Below are positions 231 through 62,507 of a stretch of DNA of 64,000 nucleotides, piece by piece. The notes beneath the pieces are model-generated. The model saw only the letters and a list, made by a program, of their open reading frames with translations. It was not told where the DNA came from and searched no databases. The stretch covers positions 127,410-191,409 of the forward strand of contig CAIOGI010000001.1 of NCBI GenBank assembly GCA_903857825.1, read 5' to 3'. This stretch comes from Candidatus Tayloriibacteriota bacterium. GTDB taxonomy: Bacteria; Patescibacteriota; Minisyncoccia; Phycocordibacterales; PALSA-1337. Numbering within the stretch: the stretch's first letter is position 1; the number at the start of each line of letters is the position of its first letter. A program made the position numbers and the translations under genes.

Positions 231-297
231 TTAAATATATCACATGTTGATAATATTAAAGTTTAATTCTAAATATTATGATATTATAATCACAACT

Positions 298-3200
298 ATG
301 AAAACAAAATCAAATACTCCTAAACTAATTGCGGTTGGGGTTTTATTATTATTGGCTTTTGGATATTTTGGAAAGAATTTTTCTTCACTAAGTTTTGTAG
401 ATAATGTGTCGAACACTGCAGCGGTGGTTCAATCAATAGATACCAACGTAAAATCTAACGGTAATACAGAGACACAATATTTTTTTAGTAAAATTAAGTT
501 CTTAGATTCGGAGATTAAAAAGAATCTTGATTTATATAAGGTTGCTACATCATCAATAAATAAAGCTGGGATTGACATGACCTTAGTTCAGAAAATAAAA
601 GAAAGAAAGGCCGTTGCAAAAGACCTCATGAAAGCTAATCCTTTGTTATTTCTTGCAAATGCTATGTCTTCAAAAACTAGAACTTCTATGTCAAAATTAG
701 TTCAAAATGATATTGAAGTAGAAAGAGATATATCTGGTATAGTAGACGTCCTTTATATTGATGATTTTAAAAATCCAAAAAATTCTCATGCTGAGTATTT
801 CTTAACTGAAAATGGTAAACGCTATAATCTGTATATTGTTGGTGAATTAGGTGTTAAGTCTAATACACCTATTGAAGCAAAAGGTTATGTTCTGGATGAC
901 GCTATGGTTATAAGTACAAATAATAAGAATGTAAAAGTAATTAATTCTCTAAGTAGAGGACCAAAAGATGGTGATGTTCCTGATTCTGTGGGTAATCAAA
1001 GAACGCTGGTCTTACTAATAAAGTCTTTTCCGGAAGATCCAGAACCGTTTACTTCAGCACAAGGGCATGATCTAGTTTTCAATGGTCAGTTTCAAAATTT
1101 TATGCAAGAGCAGTCGTACAATAAAGTTTCTTTTAGTGGGGATGTTTTTGGGTGGATAGCGTTAGGAAGAGCGGTAAACAACAGCTGTACATTTCTACAG
1201 GATGGTGAGTTGCTCGAAACGATCAATAGATATAATATAAATTTAAATAATTATGATCGTATTGTTTATGCGCACAAAGATGCAGGTGGAGGCTGCTCAT
1301 ACGTGGGTAAGTCAAATTTTATATTAAATCATGTCAGTTACTCTGTGTCTCAGACGTCTATTGGTCTCATGGAATATGATAGACCATCATGGTGGGGAGT
1401 ACAGCCTTTCATGTGGACCAATATAGATTACTTATTAGCCCATGAGTTAGGACATGCTCTGGGGGTAGTACACGCGAATAGTTGGACATGCTCAGATAAT
1501 GAAATACTGTATGGAAATTGTTGGCATAATGAATATGGAAATTATTTTGATACAATGGGAAATATTTCTCATTCGCTGAATTTCAATGCATATTTTAAAG
1601 AGCAATTGGGGTGGATTCCATATGAACAGATATTGAATATAAATCAATCAGGTTCGTATTCTATTACACCATTAGAAATAAATAGTGGAAATAAATTTGC
1701 AAAGATTCAAATTCCAGGTAGTACATCTACACCATACTTTGTAGAATTTAGAAGAGCGATAGGATTTGACATGAATTTAAATAAAACTAGATTAATTGAA
1801 AATCAAAATGGAATTTTTATCAATCGTATTCAAAAATCGCAGCTACCAGAAACTGAATTACTAGATATGAGCCCAGAAAGTTCTAATGGAAATAATACAG
1901 AAAATGTAACTTTGAATCTACCATCTTCAAACACATCGGTACATTCATTTAGCGATCATGGTACAGGCATAACTATTGGTCCAGTATTAGACGTGTCTTC
2001 TTCAAGCCTTTTATTTGATGTAAATCTACAATCACCTATTTGTCGTAGATTTGCTCCGATTGTAAATTATCATCGCTCTGAAGGTATTGTATCCGCCGGT
2101 ACTTTTGGTAATATCAATTTAAGGATTTATAATCAAGATTATTATGGTTGTGGTAACTCATCGAGTTTTAATGTTTATGTATCTTCATCTTCACCAAGCC
2201 AATGGTCATATGAAGTATCACCAAGCGAAGGTGTTACTGTTGCTCAAAATGAAACAGGTTATGTTAATTTGCAATTTAATGTTCCACTAAATACTCCTGT
2301 CGGGGACTATTTATTGGGAATAGATGTAATAAATACAATAAGTAATCAAATAAGACATATTTATTTATTTGTTGCCGTTGTTCCAGCGCTCACGATTACT
2401 AGTGTTGAGCCAGCTTTTGGATTACCTGGAAATATTGTCACCCTGACTGGAGCGGGGTTTAGCACTGATTATGGAAACATGGTAAATATGGTTACATCAA
2501 ATGGTTGGTCAGATTATAAGTATTTAAATTCTTCAAATGGAAATATTCTATTTACAATACCAAGTACAATAAATCGACACAATAGTGATGGAAGTTTTTC
2601 GGCAATACCGACACCAGAAGGAGATTATACGATTAGTCTATTTGCTCATGGTTCCTTTGCAAATATTAACTTTCATGTCGGGTCAAATCCGATAGTTTCT
2701 CCCTCCGCCACAATCATCGGTACTTCAACATTAAAGATGAAATACGCCACAGGTCCTAGTGGACAGTATGAAAATGTAATGGAGGCTGAATATAAGATTG
2801 TTATAAATGCAGGAAGTAGAAATCAAAGATTGATTAATAAAGGTTCAATGAAGTCTTATATAACAGATAGCACAAACACGAACACTTCACTTGGTTATGA
2901 GACAAAATATTCACGAGTAGCATACCCACATTTTGTAAATGAATATTTTGAAATTCCTGCAAATTCCTCATCGACATTTAATGTTAAAACCTACTTCGAT
3001 CCAAAGAAAATGTTTGCAGGGGATTATCATGGCGTGCTCGAAATGATATTTCTAGGAGATATTGGGACTCGTACAACTATAGACGTTCCATCTCCGAATA
3101 TCACGAATTCGCTAACTATTATTGGGGAAAGGTCACCGTATATCATTTCTATTTCTGCCACAACAACACCATCGAATCAGGAGGTCATAATAAGTGGAGT

Positions 3201-20448: not shown

Positions 20449-20970
20449 TTACTCATTAAATCCAATTCTTACAGCTGATGGAAGCATTTCCTTTTTTGGC
20501 TCACTAAGCAGTTTCTTTATCGCCTTGAATATAATTTGAAAGTTTTCACCGTATTCCTTTTCCATTTTTTCAATTTTATTACGTATCTCGGAATTAGAGG
20601 ACATAATCTCTCTTAATTTTACAAATGTTCTCATGATTTGAATGTTAACATGTATTGCTCTGGTACTATTCAATATACCAGAAAGCATAGCAATTCCTTG
20701 TTCAGTAAAGACATAAGGGGTATGACCACCTAAATATTTTCTAGATGGTATCACATTTTGTGATACCATGGTGTCAATTTCGTCTTCATTTAGTTTGAAC
20801 ATAAAGTCATCTGGTAGACGCTCAATATTCCTTTTAATCTGTTGTCGTAGAACAATAGGCTTAACCTCGTAAAGCATTGCTATGTCTTTATCGAGTATAA
20901 CTTTTTTACCTCTTACAAACATGATTTTGCTTTGAATAATTTCCTCCGGAATAATTTCTTTATTTATCAT
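20449..20970 (-). CDS. ORF6N-domain protein (phage/mobile-element associated DNA-binding domain)
   Basis: ...IMFVRGKKVILDKDIAMLYEVKPIVLRQQIKRNIERLPDDFMFKLNEDEIDTM...YVFTEQGIAMLSGILNSTRAIHVNIQIMRTF is the ORF6N signature. Confidence 0.6.
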   Translation of the reverse strand: MINKEIIPEEIIQSKIMFVRGKKVILDKDIAMLYEVKPIVLRQQIKRNIERLPDDFMFKLNEDEIDTMVSQNVIPSRKYLGGHTPYVFTEQGIAMLSGILNSTRAIHVNIQIMRTFVKLREIMSSNSEIRNKIEKMEKEYGENFQIIFKAIKKLLSEPKKEMLPSAVRIGFNE

Positions 20971-21012
20971 ATTTTATAATTAAATTAATAATTTAAATAC
21001 TCTAGCAAAAAG

Positions 21013-21058
21013 TCATTAAGAAATTATAAAGAAGTTTTTAAGATTCGATAAAGATTTG
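21013..21058. repeat. diverged third copy of the ~45-nt repeat that flanks tatD
   Basis: cattaagaaattataaagaagtttttaagattcgataaagatttgga versus 34142-34183 aagaaattataaatttattcttaagatttgataaagatttta. Confidence 0.4.
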
Positions 21059-21117
21059 GATTGGACAATACGAAGTCTGTAGGTGGCAATGGCAGAGGAG
21101 AGGATGTAGCCTTGTGT

Positions 21118-21720
21118 CTATCGTCTTTTTCTCACAATTTTATTTAATGCAATTCTGAAATCTAAATCTAGTAGTTCAATAATGTCGCTGATTTTTCTTT
21201 TTCCTATTTCTCTTTCGAGGACTTTTGGTAAAGAGGCAAAAAAGCGAAATACATCAAGAAATTTTACTAATTTAGGTAGGGAACCATCGCCCACACTCCA
21301 TCCTAATTCATTGGCCTTACTTCCAAGTTCATCGATCGTCTTATCTCTAATTTCCGAGTAACGTTTAACAAGTTCAACTAAATTGTCAGCTGTATTCGCC
21401 GCAGATTTTTCCCAATCTTTTAGATATGCTTTTAGAATACCTTTTTCATATTTATCACGGTCTTCGTATTTTATTCTTCTAGTTTCCTCTTCGACAGTTT
21501 TTATCACCTCATACATTTCTTTGTATGTAACACTTAACTTCTTCATTTTTTTGTCTACCGTATCCTTTTCGGAATTGTCAGTTGCTACATCAACCCCAAT
21601 GATAGCACGAGCACAAACACCACTTAGACTCCTACCTCTAATACTGTTGTGGTCTATTATTTCTCCACGTATCCCCCAGAATTCTCTCATTCCAGTAACT
21701 CGATTTGTCCTTTCTGTCAT
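21118..21720 (-). CDS. hypothetical protein
   Basis: 200-aa ORF, charged/helical, with no motif I can assign. Confidence 0.35.
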   Translation of the reverse strand: MTERTNRVTGMREFWGIRGEIIDHNSIRGRSLSGVCARAIIGVDVATDNSEKDTVDKKMKKLSVTYKEMYEVIKTVEEETRRIKYEDRDKYEKGILKAYLKDWEKSAANTADNLVELVKRYSEIRDKTIDELGSKANELGWSVGDGSLPKLVKFLDVFRFFASLPKVLEREIGKRKISDIIELLDLDFRIALNKIVRKRR

Positions 21721-22121: not shown

Positions 22122-25100
22122 ATGAACGAAGAACAAAAACCACAAGCCTCAGAGCAGGCGAAACAAACAAATCAGCCAACACAATCATCAAATCCACCCA
22201 TTCAAAAGTCCAAGATTTCTGAAACTGAGGAAAAGATTCTTGCATTCTGGGAAAAGAATGAGATTTTCAAAAAATCACTAGAAAAGCCATCACCAAAAGG
22301 GGAGTTCGTCTTTTATGATGGACCACCTTTCGCTACTGGAGAGCCACATTATGGTCACGTAGTTCCAGGTACCGTAAAGGACGTCATACCACGCTTCAAG
22401 ACCATGCAGGGATATCATGTGCCTCGTCGTTGGGGTTGGGATTGTCATGGCTTGCCAGTAGAAAATATTGTTGAGAAGGAACTCAAGCTCGCTTCAAAGA
22501 AAGACATCGTTGACTACGGTATTGGAAATTTCAATGCAAAGGCACAGGGCAGTGTGATGCGATATGCAGATGATTGGAGAAGAATAATTCCTCGTCTAGG
22601 AAGATGGGCGGATATGGATGATGATTATAGAACAATGGATGCTACTTACACTGAGTCAGTATGGTGGGCTTTTTCTGAACTCCACAAGAAGGGTTTGATA
22701 TACGAGGGATTCAAGTCAATGAATCTGTGTCCTCGTTGTGAGACCACACTTTCAAATTTCGAAGTGAGTCAGGGTTATAAAGACATAACAGATATTTCAG
22801 TTACTGTTGAATTTAAATTAAAAGGAGAGCAAAATATTTCTTTCCTTGCTTGGACAACTACACCTTGGACTTTGCCTGGGAATGTTGCTCTAGCTGTTAA
22901 TCCTAAGTTTGACTATGTAGAGATCGAGAAGAAAGATGAAGGCAAGGGAGAACTGGTCAGGTTTATTCTCGGAAAAGATAGATTGAAAAGCGTATTCAAA
23001 GATGATCAATATACTGTTGTCCGAGAAATGAAGGGCTCAGAACTCGTGGGCAAGTCATACGAGCCGGTTTTTGATTATTATTCAAATGACAAGAAACTCA
23101 AGAATATAGAAAATGGCTGGAAGGTCTATGAAGCTGATTTCGTAACCACGGAAGATGGTACTGGCATTGTTCATATTGCTCCTGCTTTTGGTGGAGATGA
23201 TTACGAACTTTCCTTAAAGCACAACTTACCTTTCATACAACATGTTGGCACAAACGGTAAATTCAAAAGTGAGGTTAAGGATTTTGCAGGACAAGATGTA
23301 AAGCCAATAGATACAAAGGAAGAGAAAGACGCACATCAAAAGGCTGATATTGAAATCATTAAGCACCTTGCTCATAATGGAAGTCTTTTTGCGAAAGAGA
23401 AACTTATACACTCATATCCACATTGTTGGAGATGCAATACTCCGCTGTTAAATTATGCTGCATCGTCTTGGTTTGTGAAGGTAACTGCTTTACGCGACAA
23501 GCTTGTGAAGGAAAACAAGAAAGTAAAATGGATTCCAGAGGAAATCGGAGAGGGAAGATTTGGTAATTGGCTTCTCGGAGCTCGAGATTGGGCTATTTCA
23601 CGTTCAAGATTCTGGGGTGCACCACTACCAGTATGGAGAGATGAAAAGACAGAGGAAATAAAGGTCCTTTCATCGGTTGAAGATTTAAAGAAATATAGTA
23701 GACCAAAAAACACATACTTTGTATGTCGTCATGGAGAAGCGGACAATAACACAAAGTCCATCATAAGTTCTCTTGCTACAAACCCACATCATCTTTCTGA
23801 AAAGGGTAAGGTTCAAGCGGCCGAAGCTGGAAAGTGGCTTCACGACAAGAAAATTGACCTTATTATCTCTTCACCTTTCTTGCGAACCAGAGAAACTGCA
23901 GAAATAATTGCTAATAAAATAGGTTACGATGTAAAGAAAATAATTTTCGAAAATAAAATTGGTGAAATAAATGCGGGGGTTTGGAATAATAAATCACTCG
24001 ACGACTTTATTGTTTTTTTCAAGGGTCAGGATAGATTCGTGGCGACTCCAGAAGGGGGAGAGAATTATGTGGACATAAAGAAAAGAGTTGGTGACTTTAT
24101 CTATGCTCTTGAAAACAAGTATAAGGACAAGAAAATTTTGATTGTCACTCACGATACTCCAATGCTCCTGCTAAAGACAGTTGCGCTAGGACTAAACAGG
24201 GAAGAGTCAAATAAATTACACAAAATGCATCAGGATGAAAAGCATTATAATAGCAATGCAAAGCCTTTTAGTCTTGATTTTCATCCATTACCTCACAATG
24301 CTGAATACGAATTAGACTTACACCGACCTTTCATTGATGATATAGAACTAACTTCTGAAAAGGGGAATAGATTAAAAAGAATTCCAGAGGTGTTTGATTG
24401 TTGGTTCGAGTCCGGAGCTATGCCTTTTGGATCAAATCATTATCCATTTGATAAATGCAATTTCAATCCTAAGCCAGGTCCATTCAGCAAAATTCTTGGT
24501 AAGACAAAGGGATATCCCGCAGACTTTATCGCAGAAGGTCTGGATCAAACCCGTGGCTGGTTCTATTCTATGCTTGTCTTAGGCGTGGCATTGTTCGATA
24601 AGTCTCCATTCAAGAAAGTTGTTGTAAATGGCCTAGTCCTCGCAGAAGATGGTCAGAAAATGTCCAAGTCAAAGAAAAACTATCCTGATTTAATGTTAAT
24701 TGTTAATAAGTATGGCGCAGATGCTTTGAGATATTATCTCATGTCTTCACCAGTCGTACATGCGCAGGATTCCTGCTTTATAGAAAAAGGAGTTGATGAA
24801 GTTGTGAAGAAGCATATTGGTCGCCTAAACAATGTCGTCACATTCTACGAAATGTATGCTACTGCCCCTGTAAAAGACGTGGCAAGTACAAATGTATTAG
24901 ATATTTGGATAATGACTAGACTTGCAGAACTTACGAAAGAAGTTACAGAAAATCTCGAGAAATATGAAATCGATAGAGCAGTCAGACCTTTTGCTGATTT
25001 TATCGACGATCTTTCTACTTGGTATTTGCGACGATCTCGAGATCGTTTCAAGGGTGATAATGAAAAGGACAAAGAGATGGCCTTGGCTACGACTCGTAAT

Positions 25101-25721
25101 GTTATTCTTGGCTTGGTGAAACTTCTCGCACCATTTATGCCTTTTGTTGCAGACGATATTTATCTAAGGGTGAAGGATAAAGAAAATCTACTGAAGGAGA
25201 GTGTTCACTTAGAGTCATGGCCTGAGGTAAAGAAATTTGATTCAAAGATAATTGAGTCAATGTCTGAAGTTAGAAAGGTTGCGTCTCTTGGTCTAGAAGC
25301 TAGAATGAAAGCGAAGATAAATGTGCGCCAACCTTTAGCTAGAATAAGTGTCGAGTCTATTTTGCCTGCAGAATTTTTTGATCTTATAAAAGATGAAGTG
25401 AATGTAAAAGAAATAGTTTCTGATCATACCCTTGCGGGGCAGGTGGCTCTCGATCTCGTTATTACTCCAGAGTTAAAAGAGGAAGGAACTATTCGTGAGC
25501 TGATACGAGCTGTTCAGGATTTGAGAAAGGAAAGAGGTTTGACTATACAAGATCGTGTCGTCTTAACTGTTGATACCGAAAAGACATTTGCTGATTTAAT
25601 TGAAAAAAATAAAAACACTATTTCTAGTGCTACGCTTTTGAAAGATATTGTTTTTGGAAAGTTGGGAGGTGAAGCTGTAAATATCGGGGATATGATGGTG
25701 AAGATAGAGGTGGGGAGGTAG
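22122..25721 (+). CDS. ileS: isoleucyl-tRNA synthetase carrying an inserted histidine phosphatase (PGM-family) domain
   Basis: HIGH motif PHYGHV; the HCWRC region; ISRSRFWGAPLPVW; DCWFESG; KMSKSKKN; C-terminal anticodon-binding region. Between ISRSRFWG and DCWFESG there is a ~180-aa block with RHGE (CRHGEADNN), SSPFLRTRETAEII, and IVTHDTPM. Confidence 0.9.
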   Translation: MNEEQKPQASEQAKQTNQPTQSSNPPIQKSKISETEEKILAFWEKNEIFKKSLEKPSPKGEFVFYDGPPFATGEPHYGHVVPGTVKDVIPRFKTMQGYHVPRRWGWDCHGLPVENIVEKELKLASKKDIVDYGIGNFNAKAQGSVMRYADDWRRIIPRLGRWADMDDDYRTMDATYTESVWWAFSELHKKGLIYEGFKSMNLCPRCETTLSNFEVSQGYKDITDISVTVEFKLKGEQNISFLAWTTTPWTLPGNVALAVNPKFDYVEIEKKDEGKGELVRFILGKDRLKSVFKDDQYTVVREMKGSELVGKSYEPVFDYYSNDKKLKNIENGWKVYEADFVTTEDGTGIVHIAPAFGGDDYELSLKHNLPFIQHVGTNGKFKSEVKDFAGQDVKPIDTKEEKDAHQKADIEIIKHLAHNGSLFAKEKLIHSYPHCWRCNTPLLNYAASSWFVKVTALRDKLVKENKKVKWIPEEIGEGRFGNWLLGARDWAISRSRFWGAPLPVWRDEKTEEIKVLSSVEDLKKYSRPKNTYFVCRHGEADNNTKSIISSLATNPHHLSEKGKVQAAEAGKWLHDKKIDLIISSPFLRTRETAEIIANKIGYDVKKIIFENKIGEINAGVWNNKSLDDFIVFFKGQDRFVATPEGGENYVDIKKRVGDFIYALENKYKDKKILIVTHDTPMLLLKTVALGLNREESNKLHKMHQDEKHYNSNAKPFSLDFHPLPHNAEYELDLHRPFIDDIELTSEKGNRLKRIPEVFDCWFESGAMPFGSNHYPFDKCNFNPKPGPFSKILGKTKGYPADFIAEGLDQTRGWFYSMLVLGVALFDKSPFKKVVVNGLVLAEDGQKMSKSKKNYPDLMLIVNKYGADALRYYLMSSPVVHAQDSCFIEKGVDEVVKKHIGRLNNVVTFYEMYATAPVKDVASTNVLDIWIMTRLAELTKEVTENLEKYEIDRAVRPFADFIDDLSTWYLRRSRDRFKGDNEKDKEMALATTRNVILGLVKLLAPFMPFVADDIYLRVKDKENLLKESVHLESWPEVKKFDSKIIESMSEVRKVASLGLEARMKAKINVRQPLARISVESILPAEFFDLIKDEVNVKEIVSDHTLAGQVALDLVITPELKEEGTIRELIRAVQDLRKERGLTIQDRVVLTVDTEKTFADLIEKNKNTISSATLLKDIVFGKLGGEAVNIGDMMVKIEVGR
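23700..24300 (+). other. embedded histidine phosphatase (phosphoglycerate-mutase family) domain within ileS
   Basis: NTYFVCRHGEADNN...LSEKGKVQAAEAGKWLHDKKIDLIISSPFLRTRETAEIIANKIGYDV...ATPEGGENYVDIKKRVGDFIYAL...ILIVTHDTPMLLL aligns block-for-block with the RHG / second-His signatures of GpmB/CobC-type phosphatases. Confidence 0.7.
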
Positions 25722-25739
25722 GGGGGTGGCAGACTAAAA

Positions 25740-26110
25740 ATAAGATAAATATAAAAGGTACCAACACTCGCTGGTACCTTGTCGGTTCTTGGTATCAGCA
25801 CTTTTTTACGCTGTACCTCGAACCCAGCCCCGATAGACATTGCTGGACTGTCCGCATCCAACTGAACTTGCAATCTCGTCTCAGTCGGCATCGATTTTTA
25901 CCTATCCTTCCGCCCCCGATTAATAATGAGGGAAGTCGTCGGAGAATCGATGGGCCAGTCTGGGCCTGTCTTCTTGTGTGGTGACCATGGCGCGCGCGGT
26001 GCGCGAGCGGCGGCGGATGGGCCCGGAAGCTCTCGGATTACCCCGGATGGTACCCGAGACCGTGCCCCGCGTGTAGTTTGGTACACCGAAGGAGACTTAC
26101 ATACCATATC
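25740..26110. other. GC-rich (~60%) structured element, candidate ncRNA of unresolved identity
   Basis: Sharp compositional island in a ~33% GC genome. It contains the hairpin ggtaccaacactcgctggtacc and stretches gagggaagtcgtcggag, ggtgcgcgagcgg and ggattaccccggatgg. The only ORFs are two overlapping Arg/Ala/Pro-rich ~70-aa frames on opposite strands. A terminator hairpin follows at 26166-26190. Confidence 0.35.
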
Positions 26111-26165
26111 ACAGCCAGTATATTTGTCAAGTGTTTTTTAATTATCCCAAATAGCTTACAATTAA

Positions 26166-26190
26166 ATGGCTAAATATAGCCATCTTTTTA
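26166..26190 (+). terminator. intrinsic terminator
   Basis: atggctaaatatagccatcttttta forms a stem atggcta/tagccat followed by a U-run. Confidence 0.45.
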
Positions 26191-26219
26191 ATTAGCTAAA
26201 TAATTGTTTTGGTATTACT

Positions 26220-26735
26220 ATGCATCACATCTACACAACTCCAGCTTTCATTGTCCACAGTGCTCCGCATGGTGAAGCGGGGAAATTTCTACTGCTTTTC
26301 ACAAAGGACTTTGGCATGATAGGTGCCGTGGCGCAGGGCATAAGACTTTCTCAGTCCAAGCTTCGCTATCATGTACAGGATTTTTCTTTTTGTATGGTTT
26401 CGATAGTGAGAGGTAAGGAGGTGTGGAGGCTTACGGGTGCGCATGAAATTGAGAAAGAAAAAAAGGTAGGTATTTTGCATATAAAAATATTAAAACTTCT
26501 CAAACGACTTCTTCAAGGGGAAGAGAAAAATGAAAATCTTTTCGGGATAGTGAAGAAATTGTATGAAAGTGAAATAATTGATGAAGAGATGATGGAATGT
26601 GTTTACATTTTAAAAATACTAAACTCCCTCGGATATGTTCCAGATGGAGATTTACAATTAATTGATAGTGCTAAAGAGAATAAGTCAAAAATTATTAAGG
26701 TGATTAACTCTGCTCTCAAAGAGAGTCAATTGTGA
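26220..26735 (+). CDS. recO: short DNA repair protein RecO (N-terminal OB-fold only)
   Basis: PAFIVHSAPHGEAGKFLLLFTKDFGMIGAVAQGIRLSQSKLRYHVQDFSFCMVSIVRGKEVWRL matches the RecO N-terminal OB-fold pattern. It is only 171 aa. Confidence 0.5.
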   Translation: MHHIYTTPAFIVHSAPHGEAGKFLLLFTKDFGMIGAVAQGIRLSQSKLRYHVQDFSFCMVSIVRGKEVWRLTGAHEIEKEKKVGILHIKILKLLKRLLQGEEKNENLFGIVKKLYESEIIDEEMMECVYILKILNSLGYVPDGDLQLIDSAKENKSKIIKVINSALKESQL

Positions 26736-56531: not shown

Positions 56532-57373
56532 ACTCACTACACAGAAATATGTTAAAAAACTTCAATTTTAAACGGCAATAATTACGCTTTAATAGAGTGT
56601 AGAGATTGTCCGTCAAAAAGACGGTTTTTTTGTAAAAAATCTGGGGTAAAACCTAGATAACTGAACGACTGACACATTGACAATTTAATACCTCAACAAT
56701 TTCAACAATCAGGAGGTTGTTGGGGAAAAAAGGTAATACTAGGATGTGTATATATTATGAGGGTTTTTTCGAATATATGCATTGAATAGTAAGTTGTAAG
56801 TTGTAGACAAATAATTGTGGTTTTTAGATTTCCTAATGGGAAATTTAAGAGTATATGGTGGATGCCTTGGCTTCTAAGAAGCGATGAAGGACGTGGCGTG
56901 GCGACGATATGTTTCGGGGAGGTGCCTAGCAACCTTTGATCCGAAAATTTCCGAATGAGGAAACTCTCTGACTTCGAGTCAGAATTAACACGCTTGACGT
57001 GTTAATGCACACCCAGGGAAGTAAAACATTTCAGTACCTGGAGGAATAGAGACAAATATGTATTTCGTGAGTAGCGGCGAGCGAAAGCGAAAGAGCCCAA
57101 ACTCAACCTTAATCGTATTATGGGACGCAGTTTATTCTGTTGTCTTGTAATGCGATTAAGGTTGGGGGTTATAAGGTGAGAACGTACCATTTATGGTAGG
57201 AAAGTTACAAAATTTTTTGATAGAAGAATCTGCTGGAAAGCAGAGCCCCAGAAGGTGATAGCCCTGTAGTCGAAATCAAAAAATCTTTCTTGTTCTTATT
57301 CTTGAGTACCTCGAGACACGAATGGCTCGGGGGAATTTGCCGGAACTAACCGGTAAGGCTAAATATTCTAGAA

Positions 57374-57413
<40 letters not shown>

Positions 57414-57986
57414 CAGCCCGGTAAGGGCGATGAAATAGACCTGAAACCATATATTTACAAGGAGTAGAAGAGGTAGCAATACCTCGACTGCGTGCCTATT
57501 GAAGAATGAGCCAACGAGTTGATGCATGTTGCAGGCTAAGCGCGAGAGCGTGGAGCCATAGGGAAACCGAGTGTGAATAGCGCGTTAGTAGTATGCATCA
57601 GACCCGAAGCCAGATGAGCTTGCCTTGAGCAGGTTGAAGTTTGTCGAAAGACAGATGGAGGACCGAACGCTAAAGTTGTGCAATTCTTTGCGATGACTTG
57701 AGGTAAGGAGTGATAAGCTAATCGAATCTGGTAATAGCTGGTTCTCTCCGAAATAGCTTTTGGGCTAGCGTTGAACGTACCCCTCTGGGGTAGAGCACTG
57801 GAAGGTCTCGACAGGTCGAAAGATCACGAGACCTATCAAACTCCGAATACAGAGGATTAACTATTCAGCAGTTAGACGGTGGGGGCTAAGCTCCATACGT
57901 CAAAAAGGAAACAGCCTAGATCTCCATTTAAGGTCCCTAAATTCATGTTAAGTACGCTTAAGGTGGTTGAATTTCTCAAACAATGA

Positions 57987-58018
<32 letters not shown>

Positions 58019-58828
58019 GAAAGCGTAACAGCTCACTCATCGAGAGATTCTGCGCCGCAGATAATCGGGGTTAAACATGATACCGAAACTGAGGATGTGC
58101 TTTTGCTTCGGCAAGAGTACGTGGTAGGAGAGTATTCTAATCTGCGTTGAAGGCAAAGGCGTGAGCCATGCTGGAGCGTTTAGAAGTAAGAATGTTGGCA
58201 CAAGTAACCACAATGCGGGTGAGAATCCCGCACGCCGAAAGAACAAGGTTTCCTTGGCTATGAAAATCAGCCAAGGGTTAGTCGGGCCTAAGGGGATGGT
58301 GAAAACCGCACCCGATGGACACATGGTTAATATTCCATGACTTTTATGTAGAGTGACGGAGTGACGAAGTGCAGTATATGACGCTCATTATTGGATTTGA
58401 GTGCATGCTATAGGGGATTGACACAGGAAAATCCGTGTCGTGTCTTTAATGACAATTCCGAGTAGAGTGTAAAGGTAGGGGTTCGCCCTTATTTATGTCG
58501 TAAAGCGCGCTTCCGAGAAAAACTTCTAAACTTATCTATATAGAAACCGTACCGCAAACCGACACAGGTGTTCAGGTCGAGTAGACCAAGGCGAACGAGT
58601 GAGAGGTCTCCAAGGAACTCGGCAAAAAATCAGCCGTAACTTCGGAATAAGGCTTGCCCTTCGCAAGAAGGGCCGCAGCTAAAGTATCTCTGGCAACTGT
58701 TTATCAAAAACACAGCTCCCTGCGAACTCGTAAGAGGATGTATAGGGGGTGACACTTGACCAATGCCCGAAGGTCAAATATCGACGTTGTATTGTCGCAA
58801 GATGATATGGTGATTGATATAAGCCCGG

Positions 58829-58863
<35 letters not shown>

Positions 58864-59086
58864 TCTGAGTTTGTCTTCGGATGAACTCAGACGGACTAGG
58901 ACTGTTATATAGCAAAAGTGATTCGTTTTTAGATAAATTAGATTAAAATATTACATAAACAAGCTACCTGCATATGAGTAATCATATGCTGAGTCCATTG
59001 CAGTTAAATAGAGACCAACACTGCACATCCGATCTCCGTAAGGAAAGGATGAAGATAGAGTCCATCTGTGCTTAAAGGAATAGATG
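58864..59086 (+). mobile_element. ORF-less ~223-nt insertion in 23S at the conserved AAGGU|AGCGAAAUU junction (E. coli ~1917 region); candidate small intron/IVS
   Basis: The exon sequence ...ggtcctaaggt resumes as agcgaaattccttgtcaggtaagttctgac after 223 nt. The insert contains no ORF. Confidence 0.5.
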
Positions 59087-59655
59087 AGCGAAATTCCTTG
59101 TCAGGTAAGTTCTGACGCGCACGAATAGTGTAATGTCTGGAGAACTGTCTCGGAGACTTGCTCGGTGAAAATACAATATCGGTGAAGATGCCGATTACCT
59201 ACAGTTAGACGAAAAGACCCTAGAAGCTTTACTGCAACTTGATTTTGACTATATGTTTTTTATGCGTAGCGTAGATGGGAGGATTTGAAGTTTTCTTTTC
59301 GGAGAAGATGGATCCGCAAGTGAAATACCATTCTTAACAAATATATATTCTAACCTCGACGGCAAAAACGACGAGAGACAGAATCTGGCGGGCAGTTTTA
59401 GTGGGGCGCTATCCTCCTAAAAAGTAACGGAGGAGTTTATTAAGGTCAGCTAGGCGCGAATGGAAACCGTGCCGATAGTGTATAGGCATAAGCTGGCTTG
59501 ACTGTGAGACGTACTTGTCAAACAGATGCGAAAGCAGAACTAAGTGAACCGACCTTACGCATTAGACGCGGGGGAAGATTATCGGATAAAAGCTACTCTA
59601 GGGATAACAGGCTGGTTGTGCCTAAGAGTTCATATCGACGGCACAGTTCGGCACC

Positions 59656-60534
59656 TTAACTCTTGACTTAAACATCAGGAAACATCGGGGTGCCTAGAAC
59701 AGTAATGTTCTAAGTTCTTTGCACTATTAAATTTAAGTGGCAAAGTTCAAATATTTGGCTTATAACGGTGGACTCCATAAACAAGCTATTGTGTCATTAT
59801 AAAAATGATATAATAAAATTTATATGGACAATACCGCGGGAAGTCTATCTCAAATACAAAAATCAGTAATTATTGGATCACTATTAGGTGATGGGTATTT
59901 AAGAATCGTTCCAGGTAGAAAGAATGCCTTTTTGGAAGTGAATCATTCATTTTCACAAAAGGATTATGTAGACTGGAAATATTCAATACTAAAAGATATT
60001 ACTGTAAGTGCTCCAAAGAAGCGTGTCATAGATAAAGTAAGAGTTGCTTATCGTTTTTATACGAGACAGCATCCTGAAATTACTGAGTTATATAAAATGT
60101 TTTATAAGAATGGTGTAAAAATCATTCCAGATAATCTTAATATAACTCCGCTTTCATTGGCAGTGTGGTTCATGGATGATGGTAGTAAATGTAGAAAAAC
60201 TGATGTTTATTTAAACACTCAGCAATTCAATCATTGTGATCAATTAAAATTAATTGATTTGCTTAAGAAATTTAATCTTGAAGCTCGACTAAATAAGGAT
60301 AAAATATATACCAGAATACGGTTTATAAAATCTAGTTTACTAGAGTTTAAAAGATTGATTAACGAATACATTATTCCATCTATGAAATATAAAATTGAGA
60401 TATGACCCTGTAGAGACTTGATCTTAACTGATCAGAGTGTGGATAATATCTATGCTAACACGCCGAACTCCATAAAATGATTTATGGATGAAGATATAGT
60501 CCGATCCTTCTGGTAACAGAAGAAAATACGACAG
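59656..60534 (+). mobile_element. ~880-nt insertion (candidate group I intron) in 23S between GGCACC and UCGAUGUCGG (E. coli ~2500 region), encoding a LAGLIDADG endonuclease
   Basis: Exon ...catatcgacggcacagttcggcacc | ... | (g)cgatgtcggctcaacttatcctgggg. Confidence 0.6.
59824..60405 (+). CDS. LAGLIDADG homing endonuclease (double-motif)
   Basis: IIGSLLGDGYL (motif 1) and LAVWFMDDGSK (motif 2); 193 aa; located inside the 23S insertion. Confidence 0.8.
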   Translation: MDNTAGSLSQIQKSVIIGSLLGDGYLRIVPGRKNAFLEVNHSFSQKDYVDWKYSILKDITVSAPKKRVIDKVRVAYRFYTRQHPEITELYKMFYKNGVKIIPDNLNITPLSLAVWFMDDGSKCRKTDVYLNTQQFNHCDQLKLIDLLKKFNLEARLNKDKIYTRIRFIKSSLLEFKRLINEYIIPSMKYKIEI

Positions 60535-62302: not shown

Positions 62303-62417
62303 ATTTTTTGTTCTGGTGGTTTGGCGCTGTGGAAACACCCGTTCTCATTCCGAACACGGAAGTGAAACGCAGTTGCGGCGATGATACTCGTATGAAGGGG
62401 AAAGTAGCTAGCCGCCG
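62303..62417 (+). rRNA. rrf: 5S rRNA
   Basis: tctggtggtttggcgctgtggaaacacccgttctcattccgaacacggaagtgaaacgcagttgcggcgatgatactcgtatgaaggggaaagtagctagccgccggtac. Helix I pairs with G-U wobbles. It has the CCGAACACGGAAGUGAAAC loop C motif. Confidence 0.8.
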
Positions 62418-62507
62418 GTACAAAGTATTTAATTTATAGAAAATTGAGACTTACTCATCGTGTCGAGTCTAATTTTGTTATTTTTCTTATTCTGCTATAC
62501 TTAACTT

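Follow-up and report, generated by a model that had tools for sequence, protein, structure and literature searches.

A histidine phosphatase domain nested within the isoleucyl-tRNA synthetase of a Paceibacteria bacterium

We analysed a 64,000-nucleotide stretch of DNA from a Candidatus Tayloriibacteriota bacterium (assembly GCA_903857825.1, contig CAIOGI010000001.1, positions 127,410 to 191,409; hereafter the window), in which the isoleucyl-tRNA synthetase (IleRS) gene ileS carries a complete histidine phosphatase (HP) domain nested inside the synthetase. A preliminary description of this DNA had proposed this architecture for one continuous open reading frame (ORF) of 1199 residues, and the ORF list, together with matches to TIGR00392 and PF00300, bore the proposal out at a level well above chance. 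The gene encodes an IleRS of type 2, the housekeeping enzyme of this member of the Paceibacteria (Parcubacteria), and the nested phosphatase is vertically inherited, with its catalytic residues intact, across a Paceibacteria clade of at least 80 GTDB species. We infer that related phosphatase copies entered IleRS at three other sites, as well as valyl- and arginyl-tRNA synthetases (ValRS and ArgRS), in other lineages of the candidate phyla radiation (CPR). The window ileS exemplifies a pattern that recurs in class I synthetases of the CPR, in which phosphatases and further enzymes are nested as domains.

With this arrangement, the catalytic body of an essential synthetase contains another catalytic centre, which appears to be active and differs in its chemistry. 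Few enzymes have been studied as thoroughly as the aminoacyl-tRNA synthetases, whose extra domains have usually led to biology not known before, for example in editing, signalling or resistance. Synthetases with accessory domains are already known; a phosphatase nested in one is undescribed in the literature we found. Full-text searches returned no account of a phosphatase nested in any aminoacyl-tRNA synthetase, and the one promising match concerned SB-203207 biosynthesis and was irrelevant. For years, databases have labelled these proteins 'isoleucine--tRNA ligase' or 'class I tRNA ligase family protein', with a single JGI label mentioning the domains ('isoleucyl-tRNA synthetase/phosphohistidine phosphatase SixA/...GNAT'). 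Present annotation conceals the second domain, and quality filters based on length or profiles may call such proteins errors.

Anatomy of the synthetase and its nested domain

The insert lies within connective peptide 3 (CP3) of the synthetase (Table 1). Query residues 480-529 align with residues 446-495 of yeast IleRS and query residues 731-779 with yeast residues 498-547, so the 201 inserted residues stand in for a two-residue loop (yeast 496-497). The Pfam match to tRNA-synt_1 is broken into two stretches by His_Phos_1 (PF00300). The coordinates given in the preliminary description (23700-24300) cover the insert almost exactly, and its placement between the ISRSRFWG and DCWFESG blocks was correct, but its size estimate of about 180 residues was too low. 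In yeast and Candida IleRS, the host loop is found in the CP3 interior, between the first helix and the DLHR helix, with CP3 spanning residues 459-526 in the yeast enzyme (ScIleRS; PMC7955072) and 473-534 in the Candida enzyme (CaIleRS; PMC7191050). CP3 is a peripheral subdomain that varies among IleRS lineages, and the insert occupies a surface loop of it. About 30 residues upstream of the insert lies the linker between CP2 and CP3, which lines the pocket for the tRNA CCA end (ARDWxxSRxRxWG; PMC7955072).

Downstream of the phosphatase core, a return linker leads back into CP3. Residues F720, P722, P724, H725, N726 and E730 of this linker are each conserved in at least 95% of 121 sequences, and in a full-length AlphaFold2 (AF2) model its predicted local distance difference test score (pLDDT) is about 71 at residues 701-710 and 91-94 at residues 711-730. 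A conserved and mostly confidently modelled linker points to rigid docking rather than a floppy tether; the model thus suggests that the phosphatase domain is held rigidly on the synthetase.

Sequence and structure comparisons both identified the insert as a histidine phosphatase. PF00300 matched with an E value of 3.3e-29 and 102.4 bits, against a gathering threshold of 21.7, and all three catalytic motifs quoted in the preliminary description are present (CRHGEADNN, residues 535-543; SSPFLRTRETAEII, residues 584-597; IVTHDTPM, residues 674-681). The predicted structure has the histidine phosphatase fold, with a pLDDT of 93-97 for the insert within the full-length model and 91.7 in a domain-only AF2 model. 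Foldseek searches with the domain model returned PspA (4ij6) as the best match (template modelling (TM) score 0.78, root-mean-square deviation 2.3 Å), then GpgP, CobC and PhoE, and also TIGAR; the top 50 matches were histidine phosphatases without exception, and a PDB sequence search with the phosphatase domain yielded relatives in agreement (PspA, GpgP, CobC, PhoE). The insert resembles PspA (4ij5/4ij6), PhoE/YhfR (1ebb, 1h2e), CobC (6nru) and GpgP Rv2419c (4pz9) in fold (TM 0.72-0.78), in the catalytic set RHG...R...E...H and in its size of roughly 170-200 residues. Sequence identity to them is only 21-25%, however, and these are free-standing metabolic enzymes, whereas the insert is nested.

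The 'PGM' label of the preliminary description did not survive. Scores for phosphoglycerate mutase models fell far below their cutoffs (dPGM_arch 77.9 versus 225; GpmB 46.6 versus 261), the mutase-type ERHYG motif is missing, and the proton-donor motif EINAGVWN, as read from the sequence, is of the phosphatase type. Specific phosphatase families were likewise rejected (CobC TIGR03162, 72.9 versus 162.9; PspA NF045917, 61.6 versus 350; SixA TIGR00249, 33.1 versus 74.5). The domain is best described as a PhoE/PspA-like phosphomonoesterase, not a phosphoglycerate mutase. Searches with the HP domain gave no match to known anti-phage defence components in PADLOC and matched only a family of unknown function in PHROGs. 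As predicted from its sequence, the nested domain is likely to be a catalytically active phosphatase.

The host enzyme passed the NCBIfam ileS model TIGR00392 as a whole protein (889 bits versus a cutoff of 621.4). Ahead of the insert, it comprises the first Rossmann half, the connective peptide core, the CP1 editing domain, CP2, the CP2-CP3 linker and the first strands and helix of CP3; behind it follow the rest of CP3, the second Rossmann half, the anticodon-binding domain and a DUF5915 C-terminal domain. HYGH, KMSKS and the CP1 editing motif TTTPWT are invariant or nearly so in an alignment of 93 sequences (A1), and with these motifs in place the synthetase part looks fully functional. The full-length model (pLDDT 84) had IleRS2 of Priestia megaterium (8c8v) and yeast IleRS (8wnd) as its top structural matches. 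Assignment to type 2 is based on 31-33% identity and a Foldseek E value of 1e-78 to these two structures, compared with 19-22% identity to the type-1 enzymes 8c9e and 1qu2. Known type-2 enzymes, which are of the mupirocin-resistant kind (8c8v; yeast cytoplasmic 8wnd and 7d5c), share the whole scaffold, from HYGH through the C-terminal domain, and align residue by residue with the query in the blocks flanking the insert, but carry a loop of 2-5 residues where the query has its phosphatase. The acquired mupirocin-resistance enzymes MupA and MupB were rejected as candidates, with 735 and 701 bits against the NCBIfam exception cutoff of 1900.

Table 1. Features of the ileS gene and its conserved neighbours, in window positions and residues of the encoded protein.
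Feature	Residues	Window position	Strand	Basis or remark
ileS::HP gene	1-1199	22122..25721	+	Single 1199-residue ORF; type-2 (eukaryote-like) IleRS with nested phosphatase domain
Insert in CP3, 201 residues	530-730	23709..24311	+	Alignment to PDB IleRS chains
Histidine phosphatase (branch 1) core	533-700	23718..24221	+	PF00300
RHGEADNN (Arg536, nucleophile His537, Asn543)		23727..23750	+	Invariant in homologues
Arg588, second phosphate-pocket arginine, in SSPFLRTRETA	588	23883..23885	+	121/121
Glu615, predicted general acid, in E-I-N-A-G-V-W-N	615	23964..23966	+	121/121; motif type from sequence
His677, second catalytic histidine, in IVTHDTP	677	24150..24152	+	121/121
Return linker	701-730	24222..24311	+	Motif L-D-F-x-P-L-P-H-N-x-E-Y-E; re-enters CP3 helix LDLHRPFID
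IleRS N-terminal part	1-529	22122..23708	+	Boundaries by homology to ScIleRS (PMC7955072) and CaIleRS (PMC7191050)
HYGH	76-79	22347-22358	+	Sequence
TTTPWT, CP1 editing motif	245-250		+	Sequence
ISRSRFWGAP, CP2-CP3 linker	492-501		+	Sequence
IleRS C-terminal part	731-1199	24312..25718	+	Pfam, alignment, motifs
DCWFESG	759-765		+	Sequence
KMSKS	846-850	24657-24671	+	Sequence
argS	578 residues	18709..20445	+	No phosphatase domain; conserved upstream neighbour
recO		26220..26735	+	Conserved downstream neighbour, synteny anchor

Conservation in Paceibacteria and recurrence in class I synthetases

To describe conservation, we used the 120 best full-length homologues plus the query (121 sequences; identity 57-92%). 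PF00300 and the IleRS domains occur together in all 120 homologues, which are 953-1281 residues long, nearly all of them above 1100. R536, H537, G538, N543, R588, E615 and H677 are invariant in 121/121 sequences, the first four also throughout alignment A1, and the catalytic histidine, arginine and glutamate residues were conserved in all orthologues examined. Beyond these, the catalytic residues are kept in nearly all of 194 aligned related domains, including every tandem or multi-site copy inspected. Judged from these alignments, the catalytic apparatus is under purifying selection. Mean identity to the query is 58% for the insert, much like the 60% of the anticodon-binding and C-terminal region and below the 77-80% of the catalytic core.

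A scan of GTDB with one genome per species, aligned over the phosphatase only, gave 416 matching stretches, of which we examined the best 80. Every one of these 80 lies within an IleS-sized reading frame, including one in the closed genome CP011215.1, and the records are named Taylorbacteria, Nomurabacteria, Campbellbacteria, Vogelbacteria, Parcubacteria or Paceibacterota. In other assemblies, we found one partial protein identical to the query (100%) and one full-length protein 92% identical to it, both with the same architecture. Since the architecture recurs in other assemblies, one closed genome among them, it is no artefact of assembly, and the nested domain is a clade trait. None of the three findings that the preliminary description had named as refuting it (a different fold, a frameshift or artefact, unconserved catalytic residues) emerged from the analysis. 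The domain anatomy and its conservation, as described here, are to us next to certain.

The preliminary description had offered a lineage-specific fusion as one possibility; the arrangement is indeed confined to certain lineages, but it is no one-off, as it recurs across CPR class I synthetases. When the phosphatase segment was used by itself in an exhaustive search without profiles, it returned 8866 relatives; among the best matches, which we examined, 97 were IleS-linked and 53 free or other. (A word-indexed protein search with a 281-residue query returned only proteins below about 500 residues and missed the homologues of about 1200 residues, an apparent length bias.) Among these matches and the relatives of one two-domain IleRS, the HP domain has four insertion sites in IleRS: A, in CP3 before DLHR, as in the window protein; A', also in CP3 but past DLHR; B, behind DCWFESG; and C, about 70 residues past KMSKS and ahead of the anticodon-binding domain. 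Sites were assigned by simple sequence landmarks, which are approximate for about one quarter of the domains. The nearest neighbour of a domain sat at the same site in 118/150 cases for A, 15/20 for A', 18/24 for B and 62/65 for C. Two or even three phosphatase domains can share one IleRS, and copies inside one protein are only 26-40% identical, which together with the grouping by site indicates old, separately maintained insertions rather than recent duplications. One two-phosphatase IleRS (P0319) was found in six assemblies, on contigs of up to 1.06 Mb (locus L087).

Other hosts and other nested domains widen this picture. A ValRS fragment of 1161 residues at a contig end (P0251) has four HP domains in succession after about residue 420, with RHG in 4/4 and the full catalytic set in the three complete copies. 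A Sua5/TsaC-HP fusion was seen in a single sequence, and two AbiEii (DUF1814) nucleotidyltransferase toxins (P0113 and P0116) carry a C-terminal HP of the same subfamily, which might reverse the auto-phosphorylation switch of the toxin. IleRS of the Gracilibacteria/Peregrinibacteria type (P0390-P0475; 1400-1860 residues) contain in-frame combinations of nested domains, with HP at three other sites and, beside it, GNAT, an AAA_33/AAA_18/Zeta-toxin-like P-loop kinase, a HAD phosphatase and a serine hydrolase; a DUF559 endonuclease-like domain and an IS200-type Y1 transposase are also nested in these proteins. The AAA_33/AAA_18 kinase directly follows HP in some CPR IleRS, and in one IleRS a HAD phosphatase is nested just past DCWFESG (residues 566-760), at approximately the position of the site-B HP of its relatives.

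Precedents exist for parts of this design. The nearest for the idea is the curated NCBIfam model NF040702 ('ileS_w_GNAT'), an IleRS with an extra catalytic domain, which is an N-acetyltransferase instead of HP. The query scored 325 bits against its cutoff of 1999 and has no GNAT Pfam match, and P0390, which combines HP and GNAT, reached only 283 bits, so this model describes another lineage. Where a CobC/PhoE-like histidine phosphatase is linked to an enzyme of nucleic acids, the nearest precedent is the Rv2228c type of RNase H/acid phosphatase (NF005567), the phosphatase half of which is matched by the HP domain with 75 bits (cutoff 326); that fusion is end-to-end with a different partner, whereas the query domain is nested. 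CPR IleRS combining kinase or HAD domains with HP invite a functional analogy to T4 polynucleotide kinase-phosphatase, in which a P-loop kinase and a HAD phosphatase heal cleaved tRNA, and to PFK-2/FBPase-2, which joins a P-loop kinase to a histidine phosphatase. This likeness is one of domain types only, and the window protein has no kinase domain.

Comparison of loci points to an origin next door. In outgroup locus L081, from a distant relative, smpB, argS, a free HP gene, ileS and recO follow one another with gaps of at most 2 nt; the free HP (196 residues) is 35% identical to the insert, and the accompanying ileS (960 residues) is insert-free. A second relative, L086, has at the argS-ileS-recO locus an ArgRS that carries the phosphatase as a C-terminal fusion. 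From this gene order, we infer that the nested domain derived from a free phosphatase gene in an argS-HP-ileS operon. A further locus, L084, had looked like a split ileS plus a free HP; it is actually the broken end of a contig and plays no part in our evidence.

Possible roles of the nested phosphatase

Under the reading we favour, the phosphatase fixed on the synthetase would be an active phosphomonoesterase acting locally at tRNA charging, and its job would be to strip a phosphate that blocks charging. His537 would attack a terminal phosphate held by Arg536, Arg588, Asn543 and His677, and Glu615 would protonate the leaving group. Two substrates are candidates: a 3'-phosphate or 3'-pyrophosphate at the tRNA CCA end, as installed by toxSAS toxins, and an inhibitory phosphate on the enzyme itself. 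toxSAS toxins pyrophosphorylate the 3' end of the tRNA CCA and thereby block aminoacylation (10.1101/2021.04.30.441581; PMC11559606), and toxins of the AbiEii/MenT group target tRNA 3' ends and are inactivated by auto-phosphorylation (PMC10435456, PMC11375011, 10.64898/2026.01.19.700257). The preference for class I synthetase hosts, the multiple sites and copies and the kinase, HAD and GNAT neighbours argue for a role at the charging step over a random metabolic passenger, and the fusion partners have tRNA handling and the release of inorganic pyrophosphate (PPi) in common. On the enzyme side, HipA-type kinases are known to inactivate synthetases. Retention of the intact domain in hundreds of species and the insertions elsewhere in IleRS, ValRS and ArgRS likewise argue for a selected charging-step function in the Patescibacteria, the physiology of which is still mostly inferred from genomes.

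Several points weigh against this reading. The closest relatives in sequence and structure are small-molecule phosphatases (acting on phosphoserine, glucosyl-3-phosphoglycerate or alpha-ribazole-phosphate, and PhoE), and the spacing between Glu615 and His677 resembles that of PhoE. The domain therefore probably has a substrate cap, a feature more suited to a small ligand than to an RNA terminus or a protein. We know of no superfamily member that dephosphorylates RNA 3' ends. Moreover, TsaC leaves the tRNA 3' end untouched, its fusion to HP being known from one sequence, and, given the operon origin, plain fusion of neighbours accounts for part of the pattern. No toxSAS or HipA-like kinase came to light in these genomes, in which no search aimed at them was made. 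Taking both sides together, a phosphatase role tied to tRNA charging, with the blocking phosphate on either the tRNA 3' end or the enzyme, seems to us quite possible, just short of probable; that the substrate is specifically the tRNA 3' end is doubtful.

The most far-reaching form of this idea, a built-in translation repair or immunity device that strips 3'-phosphate or 3'-pyrophosphate from the tRNA CCA end, or an inhibitory phosphate from the synthetase, is a more doubtful proposal still. If true, ultra-small CPR bacteria would be resistant to toxins that phosphorylate tRNAs or synthetases, such as toxSAS and HipA-like kinases, and the GNAT, P-loop kinase and HAD domains in IleRS of sister lineages would be further modules of one on-enzyme toolkit. 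A substrate-repair phosphatase integrated into an aminoacyl-tRNA synthetase would then be without precedent, as would a PhoE-like histidine phosphatase that acts on RNA ends or on its own protein.

The strongest competitor, unlikely in our view, is a hitch-hiking metabolic enzyme: an ordinary small-molecule phosphatase (PspA-, PhoE- or GpmB-like) that happened to lie in the argS-ileS operon and was joined to neighbouring genes by fusion or nesting, with a metabolite unrelated to translation as its substrate and with fusion in a compact genome merely securing co-expression. The metabolic nature of the nearest relatives, the free copy between argS and ileS in L081, the ArgRS fusion at the same locus in L086 and the position of glyA just upstream in the window all fit this account, and the DUF559, Y1 transposase and serine hydrolase domains in CPR IleRS suggest that the host tolerates insertions in general. 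It is less easily reconciled with four distinct, separately conserved sites and up to three or four copies per synthetase, or with the fact that close HP relatives are hosted almost only by class I synthetases and tRNA-linked enzymes, not by other large proteins. The conserved, confidently modelled return linker also speaks against it.

A role in removing by-products, close to what the preliminary description had suggested, is improbable. Here, the domain would hydrolyse active-site PPi (or AMP or another nucleotide) and pull amino-acid activation forward where pyrophosphatases are few. In its favour, IleRS, ValRS, ArgRS, Sua5/TsaC and the AbiEii nucleotidyltransferase all release PPi from ATP or another NTP, by established enzymology. 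To our knowledge, however, no histidine phosphatase of this branch is an inorganic pyrophosphatase, one soluble pyrophosphatase per cell would be enough, and the IleRS preference, the multiple copies and the kinase and GNAT neighbours would be left unexplained. Histidine phosphatases attack terminal phosphomonoesters, and the aminoacyl-adenylate has no terminal phosphate, which makes this previously suggested substrate unlikely. A tblastn search with E. coli Ppa found no match in 0.97 Mb of CPR ileS neighbourhoods plus the window, a sample that is not genome-wide, so this result is uninformative.

More improbable again is a non-catalytic module, either a structural brace for CP3 or a sensor of a phosphorylated ligand that tunes IleRS allosterically, both without turnover. 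CP3 does vary among IleRS lineages, with a zinc-binding motif in the T. thermophilus enzyme (PMC7191050). The apparent rigid docking would suit such a module, and a pure binder would keep the phosphate-pocket residues too. Pseudo-enzymes of the superfamily, however, usually lose the nucleophile histidine and the general acid; the turnover residues His537 and Glu615 are both invariant here and kept in nearly all related domains.

Finally, a frameshift or mis-assembly joining two genes, or a segment removed by splicing as an intein or intron, has practically no chance of being correct: although the end of the return linker (PLPHN) superficially resembles an intein-terminal His-Asn, the ORF is continuous with even GC content through insert and flanks, the Pfam scan of the ORF found no Hint/intein domain, as the preliminary description had stated, the whole insert is a histidine phosphatase fold that leaves no space for Hint, H725-N726 is followed by A, E, D or S with no conserved Cys, Ser or Thr, and the identical architecture occurs in more than 120 independent assemblies and a closed genome. 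Composition, Pfam, fold, junction residue and recurrence together refute all three versions.

Gene neighbourhood and side observations

In the window, the gene order is glyA, argS, two small reverse-strand ORFs, ileS::HP, recO, a gene for a DUF11 protein and a class II synthetase gene. Upstream argS is present in 50/80 GTDB loci, most of the others holding little upstream DNA, and recO lies downstream in 71 loci of our local database. The two ORFs between argS and ileS (window 20449-21720, reverse strand) encode an ORF6N-domain protein of 173 residues and a 200-residue protein that had no Pfam match. ORF6N domains are typical of mobile elements and phage, and the pair is possibly a small mobile insertion; it occupies the place of the free phosphatase gene in outgroup L081.

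The spacer between ileS and recO (window 25722-26219, about 500 nt) has a GC content of 0.51-0.55, against about 0.38 in its surroundings. Tested as a non-coding RNA, it contained no tRNA and had no Rfam match at E<=1, and a folding signal was absent (z = +0.2 and -0.2). With the related loci L001 and L012, it has only about 60 nt in common.

Elsewhere in the window, which does not include a 16S gene and in all 64 kb of which ARAGORN found no tRNA, a complete 23S rRNA gene (56835-59717) is directly followed by a forward-strand ORF for a 193-residue LAGLIDADG_2 homing endonuclease (59824-60405; Pfam E 9e-42). This ORF precedes the 5S rRNA gene (62312-62420), and the 23S-5S spacer that holds it is, at 2.6 kb, unusually long.

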